25,251 bases of DNA from a virus, in IMG/VR virus record IMGVR_UViG_3300035698_028775, one strand, 5' to 3'. This document shows, piece after piece, positions 1,327 to 23,860 of the stretch. The notes beneath the pieces were generated by a model that saw only the letters and a program-made list of their open reading frames with translations, did no database searches and was not told where the DNA came from. How positions within the stretch are numbered: the first letter of the stretch is position 1; the number at the start of each line of letters is the position of its first letter. The position numbers were made by a program, and so were the translations under genes.

Positions 1327-1474
1327 ATGTCATAAGTGTGGCGGTTTATCGGGTGAGCCGTTCATGTTGGGTGGATTGAGTTTCTGTGAGGCTTGTGAGG
1401 GATTGGTATATAAGATTATACTCCACATTTTCATATGTATCGTCGCTTGTATCAGACCTCACGGCATTAAATAA
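1310..1474 (+). CDS. small Zn-ribbon (CxxC...CxxC) protein with C-terminal TM helix; mutually exclusive with antisense ORF 1346..1537
   Basis: GGGGGAGGAG SD 6 nt before ATG (MPQMAECHKCGG...CEACEG). Confidence 0.3.
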   Translation: MPQMAECHKCGGLSGEPFMLGGLSFCEACEGLVYKIILHIFICIVACIRPHGIK

Positions 1475-1537
1475 ACACCCTGCCAATATTATCATACAGC
1501 AAACAAAACCAATTACCCATTTATAATAGTCTTTCAT
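1346..1537 (-). CDS. putative small lipoprotein (signal peptide with lipobox LAGC)
   Basis: MKDYYKWVIGFVCCMIILAGC...; start ATG overlaps the HNH stop (ATGA coupling); GGAGGT SD. Confidence 0.4.
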   Translation of the reverse strand: MKDYYKWVIGFVCCMIILAGCLFNAVRSDTSDDTYENVEYNLIYQSLTSLTETQSTQHERLTR

Positions 1538-2469
1538 ACTCTAACCTCCAAGTTTGTTCCTAAAATTTTTCGTAGCTTATTAATGAAATAATTCAATTCC
1601 TCTTTTCTAAATATTAATCCACCCGCCAGTTCATCATTGACCAATAAATCAAAATGCATATGCGAATCCGATTTTTTTATCACTATTACAACCACAGGAT
1701 TTCGAACACTTCTTACGCACTTTTCCAACTTGAAATTTCCCAATCTAACTCTCGTATTACCTCCCTTGTCCTTTCGAGTTAAACCAACCATCAAATTAAT
1801 AAAATTATAATTTCTCAATCTTAATGTTCCTGCATGTGCATGATTGACAAATACGCTAAATTTTTCTTTTAATACTTCGTCAATCTCCTCAGCATCTTCT
1901 TTAATAATCTTCACGATTAATTTCACATCGCAATCAGGATGCCAAACATGACCCTCATTCCAAATCTCGCAGCCCTTATCACTATTACACCGTGTACACA
2001 TCACCTGATAATTATCCAATTGGCTCTTACCGCCGTGTAATCGTGGCATTATATGGTCCTTTGTCATCAATATCTCTTTCCCATCCTCAGACAAACCATA
2101 TAAATTAAAATGATATTTATGAGGCAAAGCAACATCCTTGTTGACAAAACGTTCAAGCCCAAAAAATACTCCCTCAATCCCACATATCACACATTTTGTA
2201 CCCTTCATCGCAAATAATTGATACCTCTGAGAACACATAGAAACCATATGACCATCATAATCTTTTTGAGTAAGACATTCCCAATCCTTTTTTGTTACCA
2301 TCTTTTTCCTATGCCATCTCCCGTTTTTATTTTGCCTCCCAAATGGCACTGCGATTGTATCAACATTTACAACAAAAGGCAAAACCTCATCCACACTCCA
2401 TTGACCTATGCGAATCAGCTTATGCTCATGAGGCTTCGTATTGCCCTTTCCTCGTCGCCTATTACTCAT
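1534..2469 (-). CDS. HNH endonuclease (homing-endonuclease-like)
   Basis: Cys-flanked HNH core: CVICG...HKYHFNLYG...KDHIMPRLHGGKSQLDNYQVMCTRCN; GGGGGA SD. Confidence 0.75.
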   Translation of the reverse strand: MSNRRRGKGNTKPHEHKLIRIGQWSVDEVLPFVVNVDTIAVPFGRQNKNGRWHRKKMVTKKDWECLTQKDYDGHMVSMCSQRYQLFAMKGTKCVICGIEGVFFGLERFVNKDVALPHKYHFNLYGLSEDGKEILMTKDHIMPRLHGGKSQLDNYQVMCTRCNSDKGCEIWNEGHVWHPDCDVKLIVKIIKEDAEEIDEVLKEKFSVFVNHAHAGTLRLRNYNFINLMVGLTRKDKGGNTRVRLGNFKLEKCVRSVRNPVVVIVIKKSDSHMHFDLLVNDELAGGLIFRKEELNYFINKLRKILGTNLEVRV

Positions 2470-2472
2470 TAT

Positions 2473-3018
2473 TTAATCCCCCAATTTCTTTTCAGGGAAG
2501 TCGTGTTTTTCGAAATCTGAAAGACACTTTGCCATCGTTAATACATCTGGCATCAATCCAACGCTCTGGTAGAACCCCTGCGCACTTTCGTTCACCCAAT
2601 ACACATCAACACAACACAATCCCATACCCCGGTTCTTAAACCATTTTTCAAGTTCATTATAAAGTTTCGTAGCGATTCCAACCCGTCGATATTCTTCACA
2701 AACGTAGAGCATTTGAAGATGTCCATGAAACGGTATTAACAACATAGCACTACCACACCAATTATATATCTCCCCCACAATGAAACCGACCATCTTTTCG
2801 CCTTGCATCGCAACCAGGACATTAACGTTGGTACGAGCGATGAGCCATTCGAACTCTTCCTTTACCGTCGTAGGGAAAGGAATACGGCGAAGGAAAGTGA
2901 ATCCCCGCAATTTCTTCTGATATTCCTCATCCTCCGTAAGAAAGGCACAGTACCGTTCATATAGTACAGAAATGTCACTATCTTTTGCTCTGCGTATTAC
3001 AAATAATGGTTCATTCAT
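2473..3018 (-). CDS. GNAT family N-acetyltransferase
   Basis: Acetyl-CoA binding motif A (VCEEYRRVGIATKLYNELEKWFKNRG); start refined to ATG at 3018 (GGGTGA SD), 1-nt overlap with upstream stop. Confidence 0.75.
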   Translation of the reverse strand: MNEPLFVIRRAKDSDISVLYERYCAFLTEDEEYQKKLRGFTFLRRIPFPTTVKEEFEWLIARTNVNVLVAMQGEKMVGFIVGEIYNWCGSAMLLIPFHGHLQMLYVCEEYRRVGIATKLYNELEKWFKNRGMGLCCVDVYWVNESAQGFYQSVGLMPDVLTMAKCLSDFEKHDFPEKKLGD

Positions 3019-3617
3019 CACGAATCACCCATAATCATCTTCCAATTATCTATCGGAACAAACGCCTTTGAACCACATTTCGCTATCGCATCGTAAATTT
3101 CCTTGGCATAAATACCCAACATATTAACTGGTAGATTAGATAACCAAAAAACATGACTAATAGTTATACCAGATTCACCACGCCCCTCCATTAAATCTTT
3201 CAATACAAAATCCATCGCATCATCGTTCAATTTGATATCAAATTTTCTATCACTTGAATTATATTCAGGGCAAGGACTCAAACACATTTCACGGAACTTA
3301 TTGCCGCCCTCATCATAATCCCCATCATCACCATCCGTAATGTAAATATAAGGAGATACGTTTTCAAAACTCCAGCGAGTCGGGTCAAAAATCCTACCAT
3401 CTCCCAATACTATCCAACCATGACGCACCCAATCCAAATTGTTATGACCTGCCCAATATCCATCAGCAGATATCGGTCCCCTGTAATGCCCATATACAGC
3501 CCGACCGCCAACTATCTTCTCGTCAACAATCTTCATTGCAATTTCATAGCAGCGTCCCTCCCATTCATCAGCAGGGATTTTGATAATTTTCTCAATAACT
3601 TCTATTTCAATACCCAT
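3018..3617 (-). CDS. transglutaminase-like / papain-fold cysteine peptidase domain protein
   Basis: Cys-His-Asp triad in Transglut_core order: GRCYEIA ... VRHGWIV ... IFDPTRW. Confidence 0.55.
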   Translation of the reverse strand: MGIEIEVIEKIIKIPADEWEGRCYEIAMKIVDEKIVGGRAVYGHYRGPISADGYWAGHNNLDWVRHGWIVLGDGRIFDPTRWSFENVSPYIYITDGDDGDYDEGGNKFREMCLSPCPEYNSSDRKFDIKLNDDAMDFVLKDLMEGRGESGITISHVFWLSNLPVNMLGIYAKEIYDAIAKCGSKAFVPIDNWKMIMGDS

Positions 3618-3618
3618 T

Positions 3619-3936
3619 CTATCGCCCCCAAAGTTTAATTTCTCTTATTGTAACTTTATCTGAAATTGGATAAGGTTCGGATGAATCCTTGATTAATATA
3701 GTAGACAATCTACCATGTTTTGCTATAGCCCAAATTTGGTCACCGTTTCCATACTCCGTTTTTATCTTATTTTTCAATTTGTATATCAAAAAAGATTCCG
3801 TTTCAAATTTGCTTTTCTTTGCATATACTTTTGATAGAGAAAATAATCTTAATATTTCTTCTCCATTGAATCCTGCTGCTCTCAATCTCGTATCCGCACG
3901 TTCAAGCGCATGATACTTATATTTAATCGCTTCCAT
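3619..3936 (-). CDS. DUF4258-like small protein (toxin-like fold, function unknown)
   Basis: N-terminal YKYHALERADTRLRAAGF..EEI pattern resembling DUF4258 (yt.HAleR..eRgI..eei). Confidence 0.35.
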   Translation of the reverse strand: MEAIKYKYHALERADTRLRAAGFNGEEILRLFSLSKVYAKKSKFETESFLIYKLKNKIKTEYGNGDQIWAIAKHGRLSTILIKDSSEPYPISDKVTIREIKLWGR

Positions 3937-4438
3937 GTAAATCCTTCATCCTTCCTATTCTATCATCGTCCATCAGATATTCAACGACCGGCCACGGAAC
4001 ATATTCACTTATATCCTCCAAAATTGCCAATTTATTTCTTATAAGCGTTCCCTTAAATATATCCCTCGATACCGGAGGCGCAGAATATATTTCATATCCC
4101 CTATCACCAAACAGTTTTTTATTGATTGGATTGTTGCCGATTACAACATCGAATTCAGGAACCAAATCCTCTATATGTGAAACCCAAATTCCACATCTTC
4201 CAACGTCATCTATCGGAATTATAAAACACCGCTGTCTCCATTCTTCCTTCAAAGATAACCAAATCATTTTTATTCGCTCACTCGCAGAATATGGATTTTC
4301 ATAAGTATAACTCTTTTTACATGAGCCTACCCCTATTATCAAATATTCCAAATTCATATCTTCCATCGCTATCCTTACCATCTCGTAATGCCCGTTATGA
4401 AACGGCTGAAATCTCCCCAGAAATATTCCAGTTGTCAT
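3923..4438 (-). CDS. nadM: nicotinamide-nucleotide adenylyltransferase, archaeal NadM type (NMNAT)
   Basis: GRFQPFHNGH HxGH motif and end-to-end collinearity with archaeal NMNAT (IIGVGS..KSYT.ENPYSASERI.MI; IPI.D......W.....L.P.FD.V..NNP; RGYE; S.T.IR..L). Start refined to MTTGIF (ATG at 4438) directly after the upstream TAG stop, with GGAGAAG SD. Confidence 0.85.
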   Translation of the reverse strand: MTTGIFLGRFQPFHNGHYEMVRIAMEDMNLEYLIIGVGSCKKSYTYENPYSASERIKMIWLSLKEEWRQRCFIIPIDDVGRCGIWVSHIEDLVPEFDVVIGNNPINKKLFGDRGYEIYSAPPVSRDIFKGTLIRNKLAILEDISEYVPWPVVEYLMDDDRIGRMKDLHGSD

Positions 4439-4439
4439 A

Positions 4440-5153
4440 CTAATCTTCTCCATTTTCTATACCAACAACATATCTTGTTCCATCACTATTACGAATCCTT
4501 TGCCCAAATCCACTACCATTTCCATGCGTTACTGTCATACCATCACTACTTTCACTCATTCTATCCCTGAATATTCGGTCTGAACGCTCGGGAGAAGTTT
4601 CTTCAGTATTTGCGAATTTATTTTCACACGCTAAAAATAATTTATCCGCTTTATACAACGTAATCGCAAGTATTCCCGACGTTATTGAAAGTACACATAT
4701 TTCAAGCCAAATCGGTATGAATACATACAAATACGACCAATCAATTACTCCAGTCGATTTCAAAATAACCATCAATGAAACAAGGGCAACATTCATACCC
4801 CACGCCAATAATGACCTCTTTCCCAAAAAACGCTCGGTGCAAACAAATCTATTAAAACTATCCAGTACATATTCATCCTTATCTATCCTTCTATGGAAAT
4901 CATTGTACATCCTACGAGATACATTATCAACACTATGACACAGAACATATATACAACCGATTATTAAGAAAAAAGTAGCAAAAATAGGAACCATCCAAAA
5001 CGCACCAAATATCCAAATAAGCGACCAATTTATTACTCCAAATGCCTTTGCCAAAATCAGAGCCAAGCATATCATAAAAATCACAAACGACGATGTCGGA
5101 AATGACTCGTCATTCAATTGCTTATTTCCAATCGGTGCTATCGGCATACTCAT
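4440..5153 (-). CDS. integral membrane protein (4 predicted TM helices), unknown function
   Basis: Two hydrophobic hairpins separated by a charged loop; SD present. Confidence 0.5.
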   Translation of the reverse strand: MSMPIAPIGNKQLNDESFPTSSFVIFMICLALILAKAFGVINWSLIWIFGAFWMVPIFATFFLIIGCIYVLCHSVDNVSRRMYNDFHRRIDKDEYVLDSFNRFVCTERFLGKRSLLAWGMNVALVSLMVILKSTGVIDWSYLYVFIPIWLEICVLSITSGILAITLYKADKLFLACENKFANTEETSPERSDRIFRDRMSESSDGMTVTHGNGSGFGQRIRNSDGTRYVVGIENGED

Positions 5154-5154
5154 A

Positions 5155-5691
5155 TTACCATCTCGGCACAGCTTTTTTTATCGTATCTGTAGACGTAGTC
5201 GAAACCACTTTTCCACATTTCGTGCATTTATGCTCCCATTTCTTTATTGTTTCAGCAGGAACATGACACGGTCCACGCCAATCTGAGCCCATCGTGCCAG
5301 GACGGTCGCCAGGAATCGTATATGCTTTGCGATATTCAGGAACATATTTAGTATCGCTCCAAACATGGTTACAATCCCGTTCTAATTTCAAAAGATATGC
5401 CTTTTTATCTGCCAATTTCTTCTCTTCATCAGCTATCTGTTGCCTCGCCAGTTCAGCCGAATCACAAACTCCCGAAATAGTAGGTAAATTTTCACTAATG
5501 GGACGCACCCTCCCATATCTATGGCATTCACAACATACACTATCCTCTTCACCAAGAGGTGCAAGATGTTTTGAACAGATATCTTTTCTGCATATATCAC
5601 AATGAGAATACATACCTTCGGCAGCTTTACCGCAGTAATCACAGTATCTCTTACTCACTTCCACTTCCTCAGTTTTCGTTATCGTTACCAT
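5155..5691 (-). CDS. Cys-rich zinc-finger protein
   Basis: Multiple CxxC pairs (CDYCGK, CDICRK, CCECHR, CTKCGK); start refined to ATG (MVTITK) with GGAAGAGTGA SD. Confidence 0.5.
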   Translation of the reverse strand: MVTITKTEEVEVSKRYCDYCGKAAEGMYSHCDICRKDICSKHLAPLGEEDSVCCECHRYGRVRPISENLPTISGVCDSAELARQQIADEEKKLADKKAYLLKLERDCNHVWSDTKYVPEYRKAYTIPGDRPGTMGSDWRGPCHVPAETIKKWEHKCTKCGKVVSTTSTDTIKKAVPRW

Positions 5692-5695
5692 TTTA

Positions 5696-5971
5696 TCACT
5701 CTTCCTTTCGCTTTCCACACTTATCAGTCACCATCATAACATTCGGAATATTCATTTCGTTACACCGCCCAACAATATCCTTACCATCACCCTCACGGTC
5801 AACAAAGGAATTACAATCTCCACATTTATGCTCCGGCGACTCATGGTCAGCACTAATATGTTTTTCTACTTCCTCAATTGCATCATCCTTGATATTCGCA
5901 AAAGTGTACCAAGTACACTTAGGACAATAAGCATACCAAAAATGATGTATCTCCTTAGTCCGTATTTCCAT
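5696..5971 (-). CDS. small zinc-ribbon protein
   Basis: CPKC...CGDC...C; start refined to MEIRTK with GGAGAGATAGA SD. Confidence 0.45.
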   Translation of the reverse strand: MEIRTKEIHHFWYAYCPKCTWYTFANIKDDAIEEVEKHISADHESPEHKCGDCNSFVDREGDGKDIVGRCNEMNIPNVMMVTDKCGKRKEE

Positions 5972-5972
5972 T

Positions 5973-6350
5973 CTATCTCTCCGCATTTATCTTTGCAACA
6001 TAAGGAGTTATTAATTCTTCTAAAATATCCCTGTTGAAATTTTTTGATTGTTCAGGTGTCATCTCAATATTAAAACAATCTGTAGTCTCATCATCAATTT
6101 CAAAAGTCGTAAGAATAACGTCCCCACGTTCTTCATCAATACTCACAAAGGGCATAGTCCCAATCCATAGAAGCGTCCATTCTTTACAATTTTTCCGAAT
6201 CATGCGCTTAAAATTAAAACATGACCACTCTGGCTCATCCACCTTACCATCACAAACGAAACCATCAATCTTAATTGGATTTTTCTGAATTTGCTTCCGT
6301 ACTTCCAACAACGTTTTACTTACATCATTATTACTGAGTATTCTTGCCAT
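5973..6350 (-). CDS. hypothetical protein
   Basis: ORF tightly packed within the operon. Confidence 0.45.
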   Translation of the reverse strand: MARILSNNDVSKTLLEVRKQIQKNPIKIDGFVCDGKVDEPEWSCFNFKRMIRKNCKEWTLLWIGTMPFVSIDEERGDVILTTFEIDDETTDCFNIEMTPEQSKNFNRDILEELITPYVAKINAER

Positions 6351-6552: not shown

Positions 6553-7176
6553 TCACCTTTTGATTACTCTAAATCCTTCACTCCTCAGAAAATGTTTATC
6601 CCGTTCCAGATTGCCGTGCATCCTCATTACAACATCCGGTGGAACGCAACTTCGGTCCTTTTTCAGAACCGTTAAATCATAAATAATACGAGATATCGCC
6701 ACCAAAGGGTCACACTCAATAAGTACAGCCAATAGCTTGCAAGGATGAAGCACATCTTTCAAAAATCCTTTACGATTTCGTGAAACCGTATTAGTAGCAT
6801 CCAAAACAACATCCTTTCCTTCCGATAATGCCCCATTAACCCTATCCCTCGCCAATTGCCAAACCTTTCCCTCAATTCCAGATTCTTGATTGGTATTTAT
6901 AGAACCACTCAGTTCCTTTCTTATCTGGTCAGGACAAACTATAACAGCATCTTCACGAGTTTTTAAATAAGTAGATTTACCAGAACCAGGTATTCCAACC
7001 ATAAAAACAAGAGTAGGTTTTTCAACCTTTTCTGCCCGTTTTGCGTATCCCGCTATCGCCTTCTCCATCGCAACCTTACTAAAATTACGACCGCATTTTC
7101 CACAAACAAATTCTTCGGGATTCGAACCCTCCCCAACTCTGTCAGGTATTCCACAATATGGGCATATCTTTTCCAT
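6553..7176 (-). CDS. Zn-ribbon + P-loop kinase of the polynucleotide kinase (T4 Pnk kinase domain / AAA_33) type
   Basis: N-terminal CPYCG...CGKCG ribbon; Walker A VFMVGIPGSGKSTY; Pnk-like VVLDATN motif. Confidence 0.6.
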   Translation of the reverse strand: MEKICPYCGIPDRVGEGSNPEEFVCGKCGRNFSKVAMEKAIAGYAKRAEKVEKPTLVFMVGIPGSGKSTYLKTREDAVIVCPDQIRKELSGSINTNQESGIEGKVWQLARDRVNGALSEGKDVVLDATNTVSRNRKGFLKDVLHPCKLLAVLIECDPLVAISRIIYDLTVLKKDRSCVPPDVVMRMHGNLERDKHFLRSEGFRVIKR

Positions 7177-8055: not shown

Positions 8056-8355
8056 TCACCTTTTAAAAAATATTTTTTCACATAAACGATATTTCCCCAT
8101 CCTGCAATCAGTGTCGCCCCTCTCAATCTGAGTAAACTTATAACATGGAGTTCCTTTAAACCATTTTTTATCATGTACCGAACATCTCGAAATATGACCA
8201 TCCCATATAAGGTGAGGACAATCCTCGCCAGAAGGTTTATGAATGATAAATTCCATCGATTCTTCTAAATCAATGTCCTCCCTATCAGATATCTCTGGCG
8301 ATATAATCATAACATCATACATCACACAACAATATCCACAGTTAAGACATTTCAT
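8056..8355 (-). CDS. CxxCxxCC (YkgJ/UPF0153-like) putative Fe-S/Zn-binding protein
   Basis: MKCLNCGYCCVMYD ... CPHL ... CSVH; start refined to internal ATG. Confidence 0.4.
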   Translation of the reverse strand: MKCLNCGYCCVMYDVMIISPEISDREDIDLEESMEFIIHKPSGEDCPHLIWDGHISRCSVHDKKWFKGTPCYKFTQIERGDTDCRMGKYRLCEKIFFKR

Positions 8356-8359
8356 AATG

Positions 8360-18202: not shown

Positions 18203-18793
18203 TCAATCTTCATCTAATTTCACATCCTTATGCTGTGGGACCAAATAATATTTTGTACCTTCTGGCATATGGTCTCGATATTCGTGTTTATCGTCAAATA
18301 CAATTTTTATTCCTTCCTCCTCACAGTATAGCCCCTTTATTTTCCACCACTCATCATCTGAACACCACCAACTCATTCTGCCCTGGTCGTCATTCCACGT
18401 CGACCAACTTTCTATGCTATCACTAAATCTAATATAATCAGACATAGAAAATACCTTGTGATAATGTTCACCCCTTATATATCCAAGCCTTTCCAATTCC
18501 GCTTCTATCTCATCAAGAGGCGGACCCGAAATTATATGAATCTCATAGCCCATGTTCATCATGAATCGTAAAATTTCCCTGAAAATATGAGGCGATTCCG
18601 TAAGCACACCATGCAAGTCAAAACCAACCTTACCCATTTCACACGTCTTACAAAAATAAAGACCATTAATCTGTTTCAAATCGTTATGATTGAACTTATT
18701 TTTACAGACAGAGCATCCCAAATTGAAATTTGCATGATAATCATCAATGCCAGTATATTCTATTCCATCAACTAATAGCTTATCCTTACCCAT
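18203..18793 (-). CDS. Zn-ribbon + HAD-like (NT5C/Pnk-phosphatase-like) domain protein with variant motif I (DLHGV instead of DxDGT/V)
   Basis: CKTCEMGKVGFDLHGVLTESP...IISGPP...IVFDDKHEY is collinear with 5'(3')-deoxyribonucleotidase-type HAD; the second Asp of motif I is replaced by His. Confidence 0.4.
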   Translation of the reverse strand: MGKDKLLVDGIEYTGIDDYHANFNLGCSVCKNKFNHNDLKQINGLYFCKTCEMGKVGFDLHGVLTESPHIFREILRFMMNMGYEIHIISGPPLDEIEAELERLGYIRGEHYHKVFSMSDYIRFSDSIESWSTWNDDQGRMSWWCSDDEWWKIKGLYCEEEGIKIVFDDKHEYRDHMPEGTKYYLVPQHKDVKLDED

Positions 18794-19594: not shown

Positions 19595-20461
19595 CTAAAA
19601 TATTATTGCTCCTTCATAGACCCAATCGTATCTCAAATGTCCATCAGGAAAGAATATTATCTGTCTTATATTATCAGTATCCGTATCCCTCGTTAAACAA
19701 CTCGAAATACAAACATTTTGACCACCCACATCAAAAACAATAGCATCATGAGCCAGTTCCAAAAGCATCTTTCCATTCTCTGTTATGCTTCTACAAGCCT
19801 TCAACATCTCGCCATCATTCAACCTATGCGCTATTGTCCAATCGTGTACATCACTATTTACGTTCTTATCAGGAGCCTCAATGTTTCTAATAGTCAACTG
19901 CTCAACCTTATTCTGTCGGGCAAAATCTATCATCTTGTTTACTTCAACCTCCGAATCAAGATATCCCTTTAACGTCATACAACTCAATCTTACCGAAAAT
20001 CCAAAATCATGTAGTTTGGCTATCAGAAACTTCAAATCAATTTTAGTTCCATAGATTTCCGCATTCTTATCATCGTCATAATTCACAACCGATAAAGCAA
20101 TTGTAGTCAATCCCGATGCATACCAACTTTCCAACTGCTCGTTATATTTCCTATCAACCAATAAAATACCATTGGTCTGTAGCTCTATTATCGCAAATTC
20201 ATCATTTAATATATTAGCGACATATCCTATCCTGTTTGGATACAAAGTAGGCTCACCCTTGCCAGTTATCAAAACAGTGGTAATTCCACATCCTTTGCCA
20301 AATCTACACGCCTTTTTTAGATTCCGTGAAAACTTCATCATCTGAGATGCATTCATTCCACAGCCAACCCCACATTCAGGTGTCATTTTACTAACACAGA
20401 AATTACAACTCGCATTACATGCCTTATCTCCAACCAGTACACTCATCGTTTGTATTTTCAT
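19595..20461 (-). CDS. radical SAM enzyme
   Basis: CNASCNFC CxxxCxxC cluster near the N-terminus plus a GGE-like ITGKGEPTLYP motif. Confidence 0.7.
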   Translation of the reverse strand: MKIQTMSVLVGDKACNASCNFCVSKMTPECGVGCGMNASQMMKFSRNLKKACRFGKGCGITTVLITGKGEPTLYPNRIGYVANILNDEFAIIELQTNGILLVDRKYNEQLESWYASGLTTIALSVVNYDDDKNAEIYGTKIDLKFLIAKLHDFGFSVRLSCMTLKGYLDSEVEVNKMIDFARQNKVEQLTIRNIEAPDKNVNSDVHDWTIAHRLNDGEMLKACRSITENGKMLLELAHDAIVFDVGGQNVCISSCLTRDTDTDNIRQIIFFPDGHLRYDWVYEGAIIF

Positions 20462-23596: not shown

Positions 23597-23860
23597 TTAC
23601 ATCTTAAACGAATCTGTCCTTTTGGGTATCTGACAAATATCCATAAAAACAAGCTTCGTTTTGCCACCGTGACCATGTACGAATTCCGCATCTTCTATAT
23701 TATCATACACTATAACCGATGGAGTAGTCCGGCCTTTGGCACTTCCAGGCAAAAATGAAATCGAAACCTTGCCACTTTCAAAAAGTACACCCTCGGCCAC
23801 TATTCCAGTTCCACTAACACCACTCTCATCATCTTTCCTATCCAACACAAAAGTTTTCAT
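23597..23860 (-). CDS. hypothetical small protein
   Basis: GGTGAAAAA-ATG SD. Confidence 0.4.
   Translation of the reverse strand: MKTFVLDRKDDESGVSGTGIVAEGVLFESGKVSISFLPGSAKGRTTPSVIVYDNIEDAEFVHGHGGKTKLVFMDICQIPKRTDSFKM

Follow-up and report, generated by a model that had tools for sequence, protein, structure and literature searches.

A stand-alone archaeal-type NMN adenylyltransferase gene on a piece of a large virus-like element

The virus record IMGVR_UViG_3300035698_028775 was analysed over its full length of 25,251 nucleotides, hereafter called the window. A gene on its minus strand at 3923..4438 is predicted to encode an intact archaeal-type nicotinamide mononucleotide (NMN) adenylyltransferase (NMNAT, also named NadM; EC 2.7.7.1), and sequence comparison and structure prediction together make this identification secure. 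The product is probably a catalytically competent lone NadM, serving as an auxiliary metabolic gene that boosts the final reaction of NAD+ synthesis while a virus-like element infects its host. Nothing so far marks it as more than an ordinary auxiliary metabolic gene, and virus-encoded NMNATs are already known. What is notable is its stand-alone archaeal architecture, together with the odd element that carries it.

Identity, active site and predicted fold of the enzyme

The archaeal-type identity proposed in an initial annotation of this DNA was borne out by family models, PDB matches, catalytic residues and the predicted fold. The NCBIfam subfamily model NF002243 ('nicotinamide-nucleotide adenylyltransferase') matched the protein with 158.7 bits against a cut-off of 127 (E 1e-46), covering profile positions 3-170 of 175. 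The other nucleotidyltransferase families all scored below 65 bits, and CoaD, the best of the families outside NMNAT, had 25.7 bits in NCBIfam. The NadR model TIGR01526 gave 21 bits, well under its cut-off of 341, and the protein has no riboside-kinase domain; Pfam assigned the generic CTP_transf_like domain only. The best PDB matches were 1f9a (Methanocaldococcus jannaschii NMNAT, E 6e-35, 41% identity) and 1ej2 (M. thermautotrophicus NMNAT, E 1e-30, 36% identity), which are collinear with the protein over residues 8-173. The gene and its functional segments are as follows, with residue numbers (R14, H19, W90 and so on) that follow the 176-residue longest open reading frame (ORF) described below.

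3923..4438, minus strand: coding sequence of the stand-alone archaeal-type NMN/nicotinic acid mononucleotide (NaMN) adenylyltransferase, 171 residues, stop codon included
4448..4451, minus strand: GGAG, Shine-Dalgarno-like, 9 nt upstream of the ATG at 4438, read from the sequence
4388..4417, minus strand: GRFQPFHNGH, the ATP-binding signature with HxGH, holding Arg14, His19 and His22, whose columns are invariant in our alignment (A1)
4184..4207, minus strand: the IPIDDVGRCGIW segment, holding Asp83 (4205..4207) and Trp90 (4184..4186), the counterparts of D80 and W87 in the M. thermautotrophicus enzyme
4037..4054, minus strand: KGTLIR, the C-terminal (S)xTxxR-type motif, with T136 and R139, of which the Arg is invariant in the same alignment

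In the MAFFT alignment, residues R14, H19, H22, S44, D83, W90, T136 and R139 corresponded to R11, H16, H19, S39, D80, W87, T133 and R136 of M. thermautotrophicus NMNAT. Mutant PDB entries of the latter (R11A/K, H19A and R136A in 1m8f, 1m8g, 1m8k and 1m8j; also 1hyb) mark R11, H19 and R136 as active-site residues. D80 and W87 are nicotinamide-site residues, W87 stacking on the nicotinamide in this enzyme (1EJ2). A structure predicted with AlphaFold 2 (AF2) from a 13-sequence alignment reached a pLDDT of 92.2 and a pTM of 0.88. When it was compared with the PDB by Foldseek, ranks 1-13 were all occupied by archaeal NMNAT structures (TM-score 0.85-0.92, root-mean-square deviation 1.7-2.2 Å), followed at lower ranks by NadM-Nudix proteins (TMq 0.75-0.84) and then by phosphopantetheine adenylyltransferase (PPAT; ~0.65). 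We infer from the alignment and the model that the product is catalytically competent and prefers NMN or NaMN.

The protein thus resembles archaeal NadM (MJ0541/1F9A; 1EJ2) in being a single domain of about 170 residues that aligns end to end, with the same catalytic residues and a TM-score of ~0.9. It differs in lying on a virus-like element, in the replacements Ser131 to Lys, His44 to Tyr and Arg47 to Glu, and in scoring below the TIGR01527 cut-off. The GHY and EEWR..C signatures also set it apart, being common to a few Thermoplasmatota and metagenomic sequences; the closest subclade is marked by GHY, KKSYT, EEWR..C and K/R-G in the C-terminal motif.

The longest ORF over the gene, 3923..4453 on the minus strand, opens at an alternative in-frame upstream ATG at 4453. 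The start at 4438 is likely the better one, because the GGAG stands at a suitable spacing, the ATG comes 1 nt after the stop of the upstream gene, the gene calls on 100%-identical metagenome contigs open at base 4438, and the first residue of the homologs is equivalent to this ATG in the alignment. The GGAG itself sits within the 3' end of the upstream gene, of which the TAG stop occupies 4440..4442. The span 3923-4438 assigned initially was hence correct, and the peptide GRFQPFHNGH, on which that assignment had drawn, was located at 4388..4417. Two contigs that are 100% identical to the window (L009 and L010; ENA ERZ27315536 and JGI 3300025669) both stop exactly at 4018 inside the gene, which could reflect strain variation, a coverage break or the same reads assembled twice.

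A profile search for relatives returned 2662 cluster representatives with E < 1e-3, just nine of which had E < 1e-30. The closest sequence, on a 1.4-kb metagenome contig (L004), was 61-63% identical. The next relatives were 43-53% identical and included proteins annotated as NMNAT from metagenome-assembled genomes of Candidatus Thermoplasmatota; identity to any cellular NMNAT did not exceed 53%. In one Thermoplasmatota protein (P0014) the NMNAT is fused to an N-terminal multi-pass membrane region, and in another relative (P0016) it is fused to CinA; P0014 and its orthologs lie in ordinary chromosomal settings. Among species-representative genomes, 78 of the 80 best matches were archaeal (Thermoplasmatota including Methanomassiliicoccales, DHVE2, Halobacteria, Bathyarchaeota and others), with identity of at most 52%. 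GenBank phages gave at most 41%, mostly for the N-terminal half alone. The best relatives in IMG/VR were 26-47% identical over the best aligned segment, so that no close relative was found in that collection. No record identical to the exact protein was found, and a 41-mer of the gene was without match in viral, metagenome and genome collections.

Because 75 of the 77 best IMG/VR relatives are ORFs of more than 230 residues, typically ~340, the stand-alone 171-residue form appears unusual among viral NMNATs. Fifty of these relatives carry a canonical Nudix box, as is characteristic of the NadM-Nudix architecture. Fusion partners across the family are CinA/PncC, NUDIX and an HAD-like domain, and a phage-like contig (L013) bears a cluster of isochorismatase-like (PncA-like), NAPRTase and NAD synthase (NadE) genes together with an NMNAT-HAD-like fusion, P0157. 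On account of these fusion partners and this cluster, the wider family seems to be tied to NAD metabolism. A PncB-like gene lay within 10 kb of 6 of the 80 IMG/VR NMNAT loci, in a search of which the seed was PncB-type and may miss Nampt.

Proposed role and the search for pathway partners

By analogy with the solved homologs, the 5'-phosphate of NMN (or NaMN) would attack the alpha-phosphate of Mg-ATP. Arg14, His19 and His22, together with Thr136 and Arg139, would keep the triphosphate in place and stabilise the transition state, the nicotinamide riboside would be positioned by Trp90 and Asp83, and the products would be NAD+ (or nicotinic acid adenine dinucleotide, NaAD) and pyrophosphate. During infection, the mononucleotide would come from the host and more flux would pass through the last common step of NAD+ synthesis, by which the NAD+ pool would be sustained and NAD+ depletion could be blunted. 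We infer both this physiological role and the timing of expression. The enzyme may contribute to tolerating NAD+ depletion, and a putative role in counter-defence is plausible. By itself the enzyme is not a complete NAD+-reconstitution pathway: an NMNAT adenylylates NMN or NaMN only, and alone it cannot rebuild NAD+ from ADP-ribose and nicotinamide, the products of TIR/SIR2 NADases.

Virus-encoded NAD+ synthesis is now recognised as a means by which viruses withstand NAD+-depleting immunity. Those characterised so far are bacterial phages that carry Nampt with NadM-Nudix, Adps with Namat, or PnuC with NadR. Of the NAD+ reconstitution pathways (NARP), NARP2 consists of Nampt and Nmnat (bioRxiv 10.1101/2024.02.11.579819), NARP1 of Adps and Namat, and NARP3 of PnuC and NadR (PMC13464706). 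Viral Nmnat genes raise NAD+ in infected cells, and together with Nampt they overcome NAD+-depleting defence (bioRxiv 10.1101/2024.02.11.579819). A 735-kb huge phage was reported with a lone nadD, for which its authors propose that over-expressing this step raises NAD+ synthesis (PMC11662467).

Partner genes were sought in the 25-kb window and ~3 kb of extensions obtained from overlapping fragments, which amounts to about 28 kb; the whole genome is probably much larger. Pfam scans covered essentially all ORFs of at least 80 residues, NCBIfam and PHROGs covered many, a Nudix-box regular expression (regex) was applied to all ORFs, and six-frame tblastn was run with NaPRTase, NadE, isochorismatase and NadM-Nudix seeds. 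By these scans no Nampt/NaPRTase, NadE, PncA, Prs/Adps, Nudix, PnuC or NadR was found in the window, and the extensions added just a PolyA_pol enzyme and TnpB. The search for Nampt, Prs-like (Adps) and Namat genes over the window and ~3 kb was hence negative, which agrees with the initial remark that no Nampt or Nudix partner is visible. The regex gave no Nudix box in any window ORF, and the NMNAT ends at residue 171, directly after the NMNAT fold. Domain scans of the window ORFs gave no PARP, TIR, SIR2 or macro domain. Two related contigs of ~20 kb each (L014 and L015) also carried no NAD-pathway partner.

Comparison with the known pathways gave the same result for each. No Nampt of the same virus, as in NARP2, was present in the ~28 kb seen; for NARP1, there was no Prs-like or NAPRTase-like ORF in the window; for NARP3, the membrane protein encoded upstream had no PnuC match, and the NadR model scored far below its cut-off. 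The C-terminal Nudix domain of the NadM-Nudix fusions was likewise absent. Because the partner genes are absent from the sequence at hand, the gene cannot be assigned to NARP1, NARP2 or NARP3. Of the 'NAD+ salvage, NARP2-type counter-defence' proposed by the initial annotation, salvage is therefore reasonable for the enzyme, while the NARP2 type is not shown, Nampt being absent from these ~28 kb.

The likeness to particular systems is partial in every case. NatV, the NadM-Nudix of Vibrio phage KVP40 and the Nmnat half of NARP2, is also virus-encoded and shares the catalytic domain family and the reaction. Phage NadM-Nudix proteins are, however, of ~340 residues with a C-terminal Nudix domain (ADP-ribose pyrophosphatase) and are paired with Nampt, neither of which was seen here, and their identity to this NMNAT is at most ~40%, mostly over the first 95 residues. 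The lone nadD of the huge phage (735 kb, LR756501 class) is comparable as a single NAD adenylyltransferase, and that genome also has the nearest homolog of a major vault protein (MVP) encoded in the window. It is described as a bacterial-type NadD rather than an archaeal NadM, and those genomes are distant (MVP 40% identical) and without strong GC skew. NARP3 likewise has a membrane-protein gene directly upstream of the gene for an NMN-adenylylating enzyme, and its product is NAD+, whereas the upstream protein here is a duplicated phrog_1374 unit rather than PnuC and the enzyme is not NadR.

A first alternative, which we consider unlikely, is that the NMNAT belongs to a dedicated counter-defence pathway of NAD+ reconstitution (NARP2-like or Preiss-Handler), with its partner or partners encoded elsewhere on the genome. 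Nmnat is found in 94% of the phages that carry Nampt, and together the two overcome Thoeris, DSR and SIR2-HerA (bioRxiv 10.1101/2024.02.11.579819); the NAD genes of large phages need not adjoin (PMC11662467). An Acb5-family homolog at 23597..23860 shows that the element carries anti-defence genes, although its support for a counter-defence role of the NMNAT is circumstantial and it says nothing specific of that gene, and an ORF at 18203..18793 is homologous to a domain of the NMNAT fusion within the PncA-like/NAPRTase/NadE cluster of L013. These points are opposed by the outcome of the partner search, both in the window with its ~3 kb of extensions (Pfam, NCBIfam, PHROG, regex and tblastn) and on L014 and L015, and by the size of the protein, since viral enzymes in pathways of this kind typically have the ~340-residue NadM-Nudix form, not the 171-residue one.

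Several observations weigh against the preferred reading of a lone auxiliary NadM. An enzyme of the last step alone would be useful only where this step is flux-limiting or where the host's own enzyme disappears during infection, and a partner gene elsewhere in the larger genome, of which ~28 kb were seen, would shift the reading to a dedicated pathway. The score with TIGR01527 (arch_NMN_Atrans) was 152.7 bits, under the strict equivalog cut-off of 181.2. Ser131 of the M. thermautotrophicus enzyme is replaced by Lys134 in KGTLIR. The signs of the host domain are mixed: CoaD and a flanking PolyA_pol-head gene of the class II CCA-adding type look bacterial, the transcription factor B (TFB) of the related L014 and the NMNAT itself archaeal. 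As for the Ser-to-Lys replacement, it appears to be within natural variation, because this position varies among the 80 closest cellular NMNATs (S in 42, E in 24, K in 3) and is K or R throughout the closest subclade.

The low TIGR01527 score and the signature of the closest subclade (GHY, KKSYT, K/R-G) might also be read as signs that the enzyme adenylylates another acceptor, or that it serves nucleotide modification or signalling together with the nucleotide enzymes in which the window is rich (nucleoside 2-deoxyribosyltransferase-like or NDT-like, CoaD with its HD-type phosphohydrolase, Pnkp-like kinase, HAD-like and radical SAM proteins). This is improbable, as the residues of the NMN and ATP sites of the archaeal structures are all kept and nucleotidyltransferase families outside NMNAT score at least 130 bits lower. 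In addition, among the members of the subclade are chromosomal genes of Thermoplasmatota that bear an NMNAT annotation and are assumed to be the NMNAT of those cells, and the enzymes listed are scattered over 15 kb among unrelated ORFs, none of them adjoining the NMNAT gene.

If the preferred reading of a lone NadM is correct, a long-resident, stand-alone archaeal-type NMNAT would bring another enzyme architecture, and perhaps archaeal hosts, into the theme of viral NAD+ synthesis. A question that it poses is whether a virus gains from over-expressing the last step alone.

The carrier element, its composition and its host

The window is, as judged from its genes, a piece of a large uncultivated virus-like element. 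This reading rests on the one-strand arrays of small ORFs, the HNH endonuclease, TnpB, the Acb5 homolog, and an MVP homolog with huge-phage matches only. From ~1.5 kb onward all genes are on the minus strand and are tightly packed, with frequent overlaps; most are small ORFs, and about three-quarters are without family. The first 1.3 kb bears plus-strand ORFs with positive GC skew, which converge on the minus-strand array at about 1327..1533. No tRNA, ribosomal or other housekeeping gene was found in the 25-kb window, and the window had no nucleotide-level match to GenBank phages. Look-ups of exact neighbour proteins gave fragments of at most 5.3 kb (JGI 3300025669, 3300005915 and several ENA assemblies), which lengthen the sequence by 2.1 kb to the left and 1.1 kb to the right. 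The left extension (L184) encodes a 506-residue PolyA_pol-head nucleotidyltransferase of the class II CCA-adding type. On the right (L180) lies TnpB, complete there and present as a fragment at the right edge of the window. The features assigned in the window outside the NMNAT region are listed below.

1534..2469: HNH endonuclease
2473..3021: GNAT acetyltransferase
6553..7176, minus strand: Pnkp-like P-loop kinase with an N-terminal zinc ribbon; best PDB match, the kinase domain of C. thermocellum Pnkp
9379..10569, minus strand: CoaD/PPAT fused to a C-terminal phosphohydrolase, 396 residues; TIGR01510 at 114 bits against a cut-off of 103, PDB PPATs at 3e-19
11330..13678, minus strand: MVP homolog, 782 residues; MVP shoulder domain at E 7e-29 and one Vault repeat
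13916..14449, minus strand: NDT-like protein; PF15891 at E 2e-30, phrog_30579 at E 1e-48, PDB 4mcj at E 4e-24
18203..18793, minus strand: zinc-ribbon and HAD-like protein with motifs DLHGVL / ISGPP / FDDK, the first being an unusual D-x-H motif
19595..20461, minus strand: radical SAM protein with weak MoaA-like and viperin-like matches
23597..23860, minus strand: Acb5-family (anti-CBASS) homolog, 87 residues; identical to a database protein with a precomputed PF26761 Acb5 match, phrog_7499 at E 7.6e-22

Acb5 proteins are phage nucleases that cleave 3'3'-cGAMP, the signal of the CBASS defence (PMC12265669). The local Pfam scan gave no family for the homolog at 23597..23860. Compared by position without alignment, its Arg8 and His62/His64 are close to where Acb5A has its essential R10 and H61.

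The MVP homolog matched, among GenBank phages, only the 'uncultured phage' records LR756500 (462 kb) and LR756501 and LR756503 (735 kb), with 40-43% identity. LR756500 has homologs of the CoaD-HD fusion and of the kinase near its MVP gene, and no NMNAT in that neighbourhood. The initial annotation had linked the NMNAT to the MVP homolog through the NAD+-consuming vPARP of vaults. This link found no support, as there is no PARP domain in the window, a distance of 7 kb with over 10 genes separates the two, and the MVP neighbourhood of LR756500 is without NMNAT. The NDT-like protein was 39-50% identical to jumbo-phage proteins (RsoM2USA, CcrColossus, and Brevundimonas and Prevotella phages).

The HAD-like protein at 18203..18793 shared 40% identity over 131 residues with the C-terminal domain of the NMNAT fusion P0157 (L013 8001..8897), and it is a possible functional associate of the NMNAT. 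Its AF2 model had a pLDDT of 68 and gave weak Foldseek matches to the HAD family. The radical SAM protein and the Pnkp-type kinase suggest nucleotide or RNA-repair functions on the element. The kinase at 6553..7176 was considered as a nicotinamide riboside kinase and rejected, since it matches Pnkp-type polynucleotide kinases instead. The fusion at 9379..10569, of which the phosphohydrolase domain corresponds to phrog_19425 with an H...HD motif, was considered as a second NMNAT or NadD; it is instead a bacterial-type CoaD/PPAT, with TIGR01510 over the cut-off, and so represents a second cofactor-pathway adenylyltransferase on the element.

The GC content of the window is 37%, and on the coding strand G greatly exceeds C, with a skew of ~0.40 per gene and a mean third-position skew of 0.54. 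For the NMNAT gene and the element mean, respectively, the GC was 0.374 and 0.374, the skew 0.42 and 0.40, and the third-position skew 0.60 and 0.54. Because its composition equals the element means, the gene appears to be an old resident of the element, not a recent capture. Elsewhere, the GC skew was 0.32 on L004, 0.12-0.15 at the huge-phage MVP loci, and at most 0.1 at cellular loci with NMNAT relatives. It is very improbable that the window stems from an archaeal chromosome or from an island integrated in one, with the NMNAT as the host's housekeeping nadM: the nearest relatives of the NMNAT are cellular archaeal NMNATs (78 of the 80 best genome matches) and the closest named are of Thermoplasmatota, but the identity is at most 53%, the coding-strand skew of ~0.4 is well above that of the cellular loci, phage-type HNH, TnpB, Acb5 and PHROG families are present, and the 25 kb combines a lack of housekeeping genes with about three-quarters of ORFs without family.

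L014 and L015 have the composition of the window (GC 37.5%, skew 0.40, all genes on one strand), and share two proteins with it at 55% and 62% identity. Both encode a full-length TFB (on L014 at 14345..15295), with TFIIB repeats at E 6.5e-48 and a zinc ribbon at 3e-17. The TFB on these compositionally identical relatives and the archaeal affinity of the NMNAT hint that the element may have an archaeal host. Evidence to the contrary comes from the bacterial-type CoaD, from the PolyA_pol-head nucleotidyltransferase, which resembles class II CCA-adding enzymes, and from the relatives of the MVP homolog and the NDT-like protein, which belong to phage-labelled records. Since the host is possibly archaeal, the term 'phage' used in the initial annotation may be wrong. 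L014 also encodes TnpB and a ParB-like / SPL-type radical SAM protein. Identification of the element as a Borg was rejected, as nothing was in its favour: there is one weak tandem repeat, and the Borg paper names TROVE/TEP1-like proteins, not MVP.

With its strand bias, MVP and Acb5 homologs and mixture of archaeal and bacterial genes, the carrier is more unusual than the NMNAT gene itself. A bolder proposal, which we regard as rather doubtful, is that it represents an undescribed lineage of large archaeal viruses or extrachromosomal elements with a nucleotide-centred counter-defence kit, in which NadM would work with non-canonical partners, such as the HAD-like protein, instead of Nampt. If this were true, the lineage would be marked by the G>C bias of the coding strand and, in a relative, by TFB; the kit would include the Acb5-like cGAMP nuclease, and the stand-alone NadM would be the first NAD+-replenishing enzyme of an archaeal virus.

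Immediate surroundings of the gene

The upstream neighbour of the NMNAT gene encodes a membrane protein built from two copies of a phage unit with two transmembrane (TM) segments.

4440..5153, minus strand: four-TM protein, 237 residues, directly upstream of the NMNAT

It matched phrog_1374 (E 1e-15) in two stretches, each half corresponding to this 89-residue phage family, and besides this gave just a weak Tmemb_185A match. The internal duplication was significant (z = 5.2), with the motif K-x-x-G-V-I-N/D-W-S. Lacking a PnuC match, it was ruled out as a PnuC-like transporter. It was also rejected as a homolog of the TM domain fused to NMNAT in the Thermoplasmatota protein P0014 (z = 1.7, with 68 of 1000 shuffles as good). 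The adjacency of the membrane protein and the NMNAT is not kept on L004, the contig with the closest NMNAT.

Small proteins rich in CxxC zinc-ribbon motifs are encoded nearby, at 5155..5718, 5696..5986, the N-terminus of 6553..7176, and 8056..8418. Downstream of the NMNAT gene, proteins of 105 and 199 residues are encoded, both without known family. Scans with Pfam, NCBIfam and PHROGs assigned no family to the latter, at 3018..3617 on the minus strand and two genes downstream; on visual inspection, its sequence has a Cys...His-Gly-Trp...Asp pattern that recalls papain-like or transglutaminase-like enzymes.

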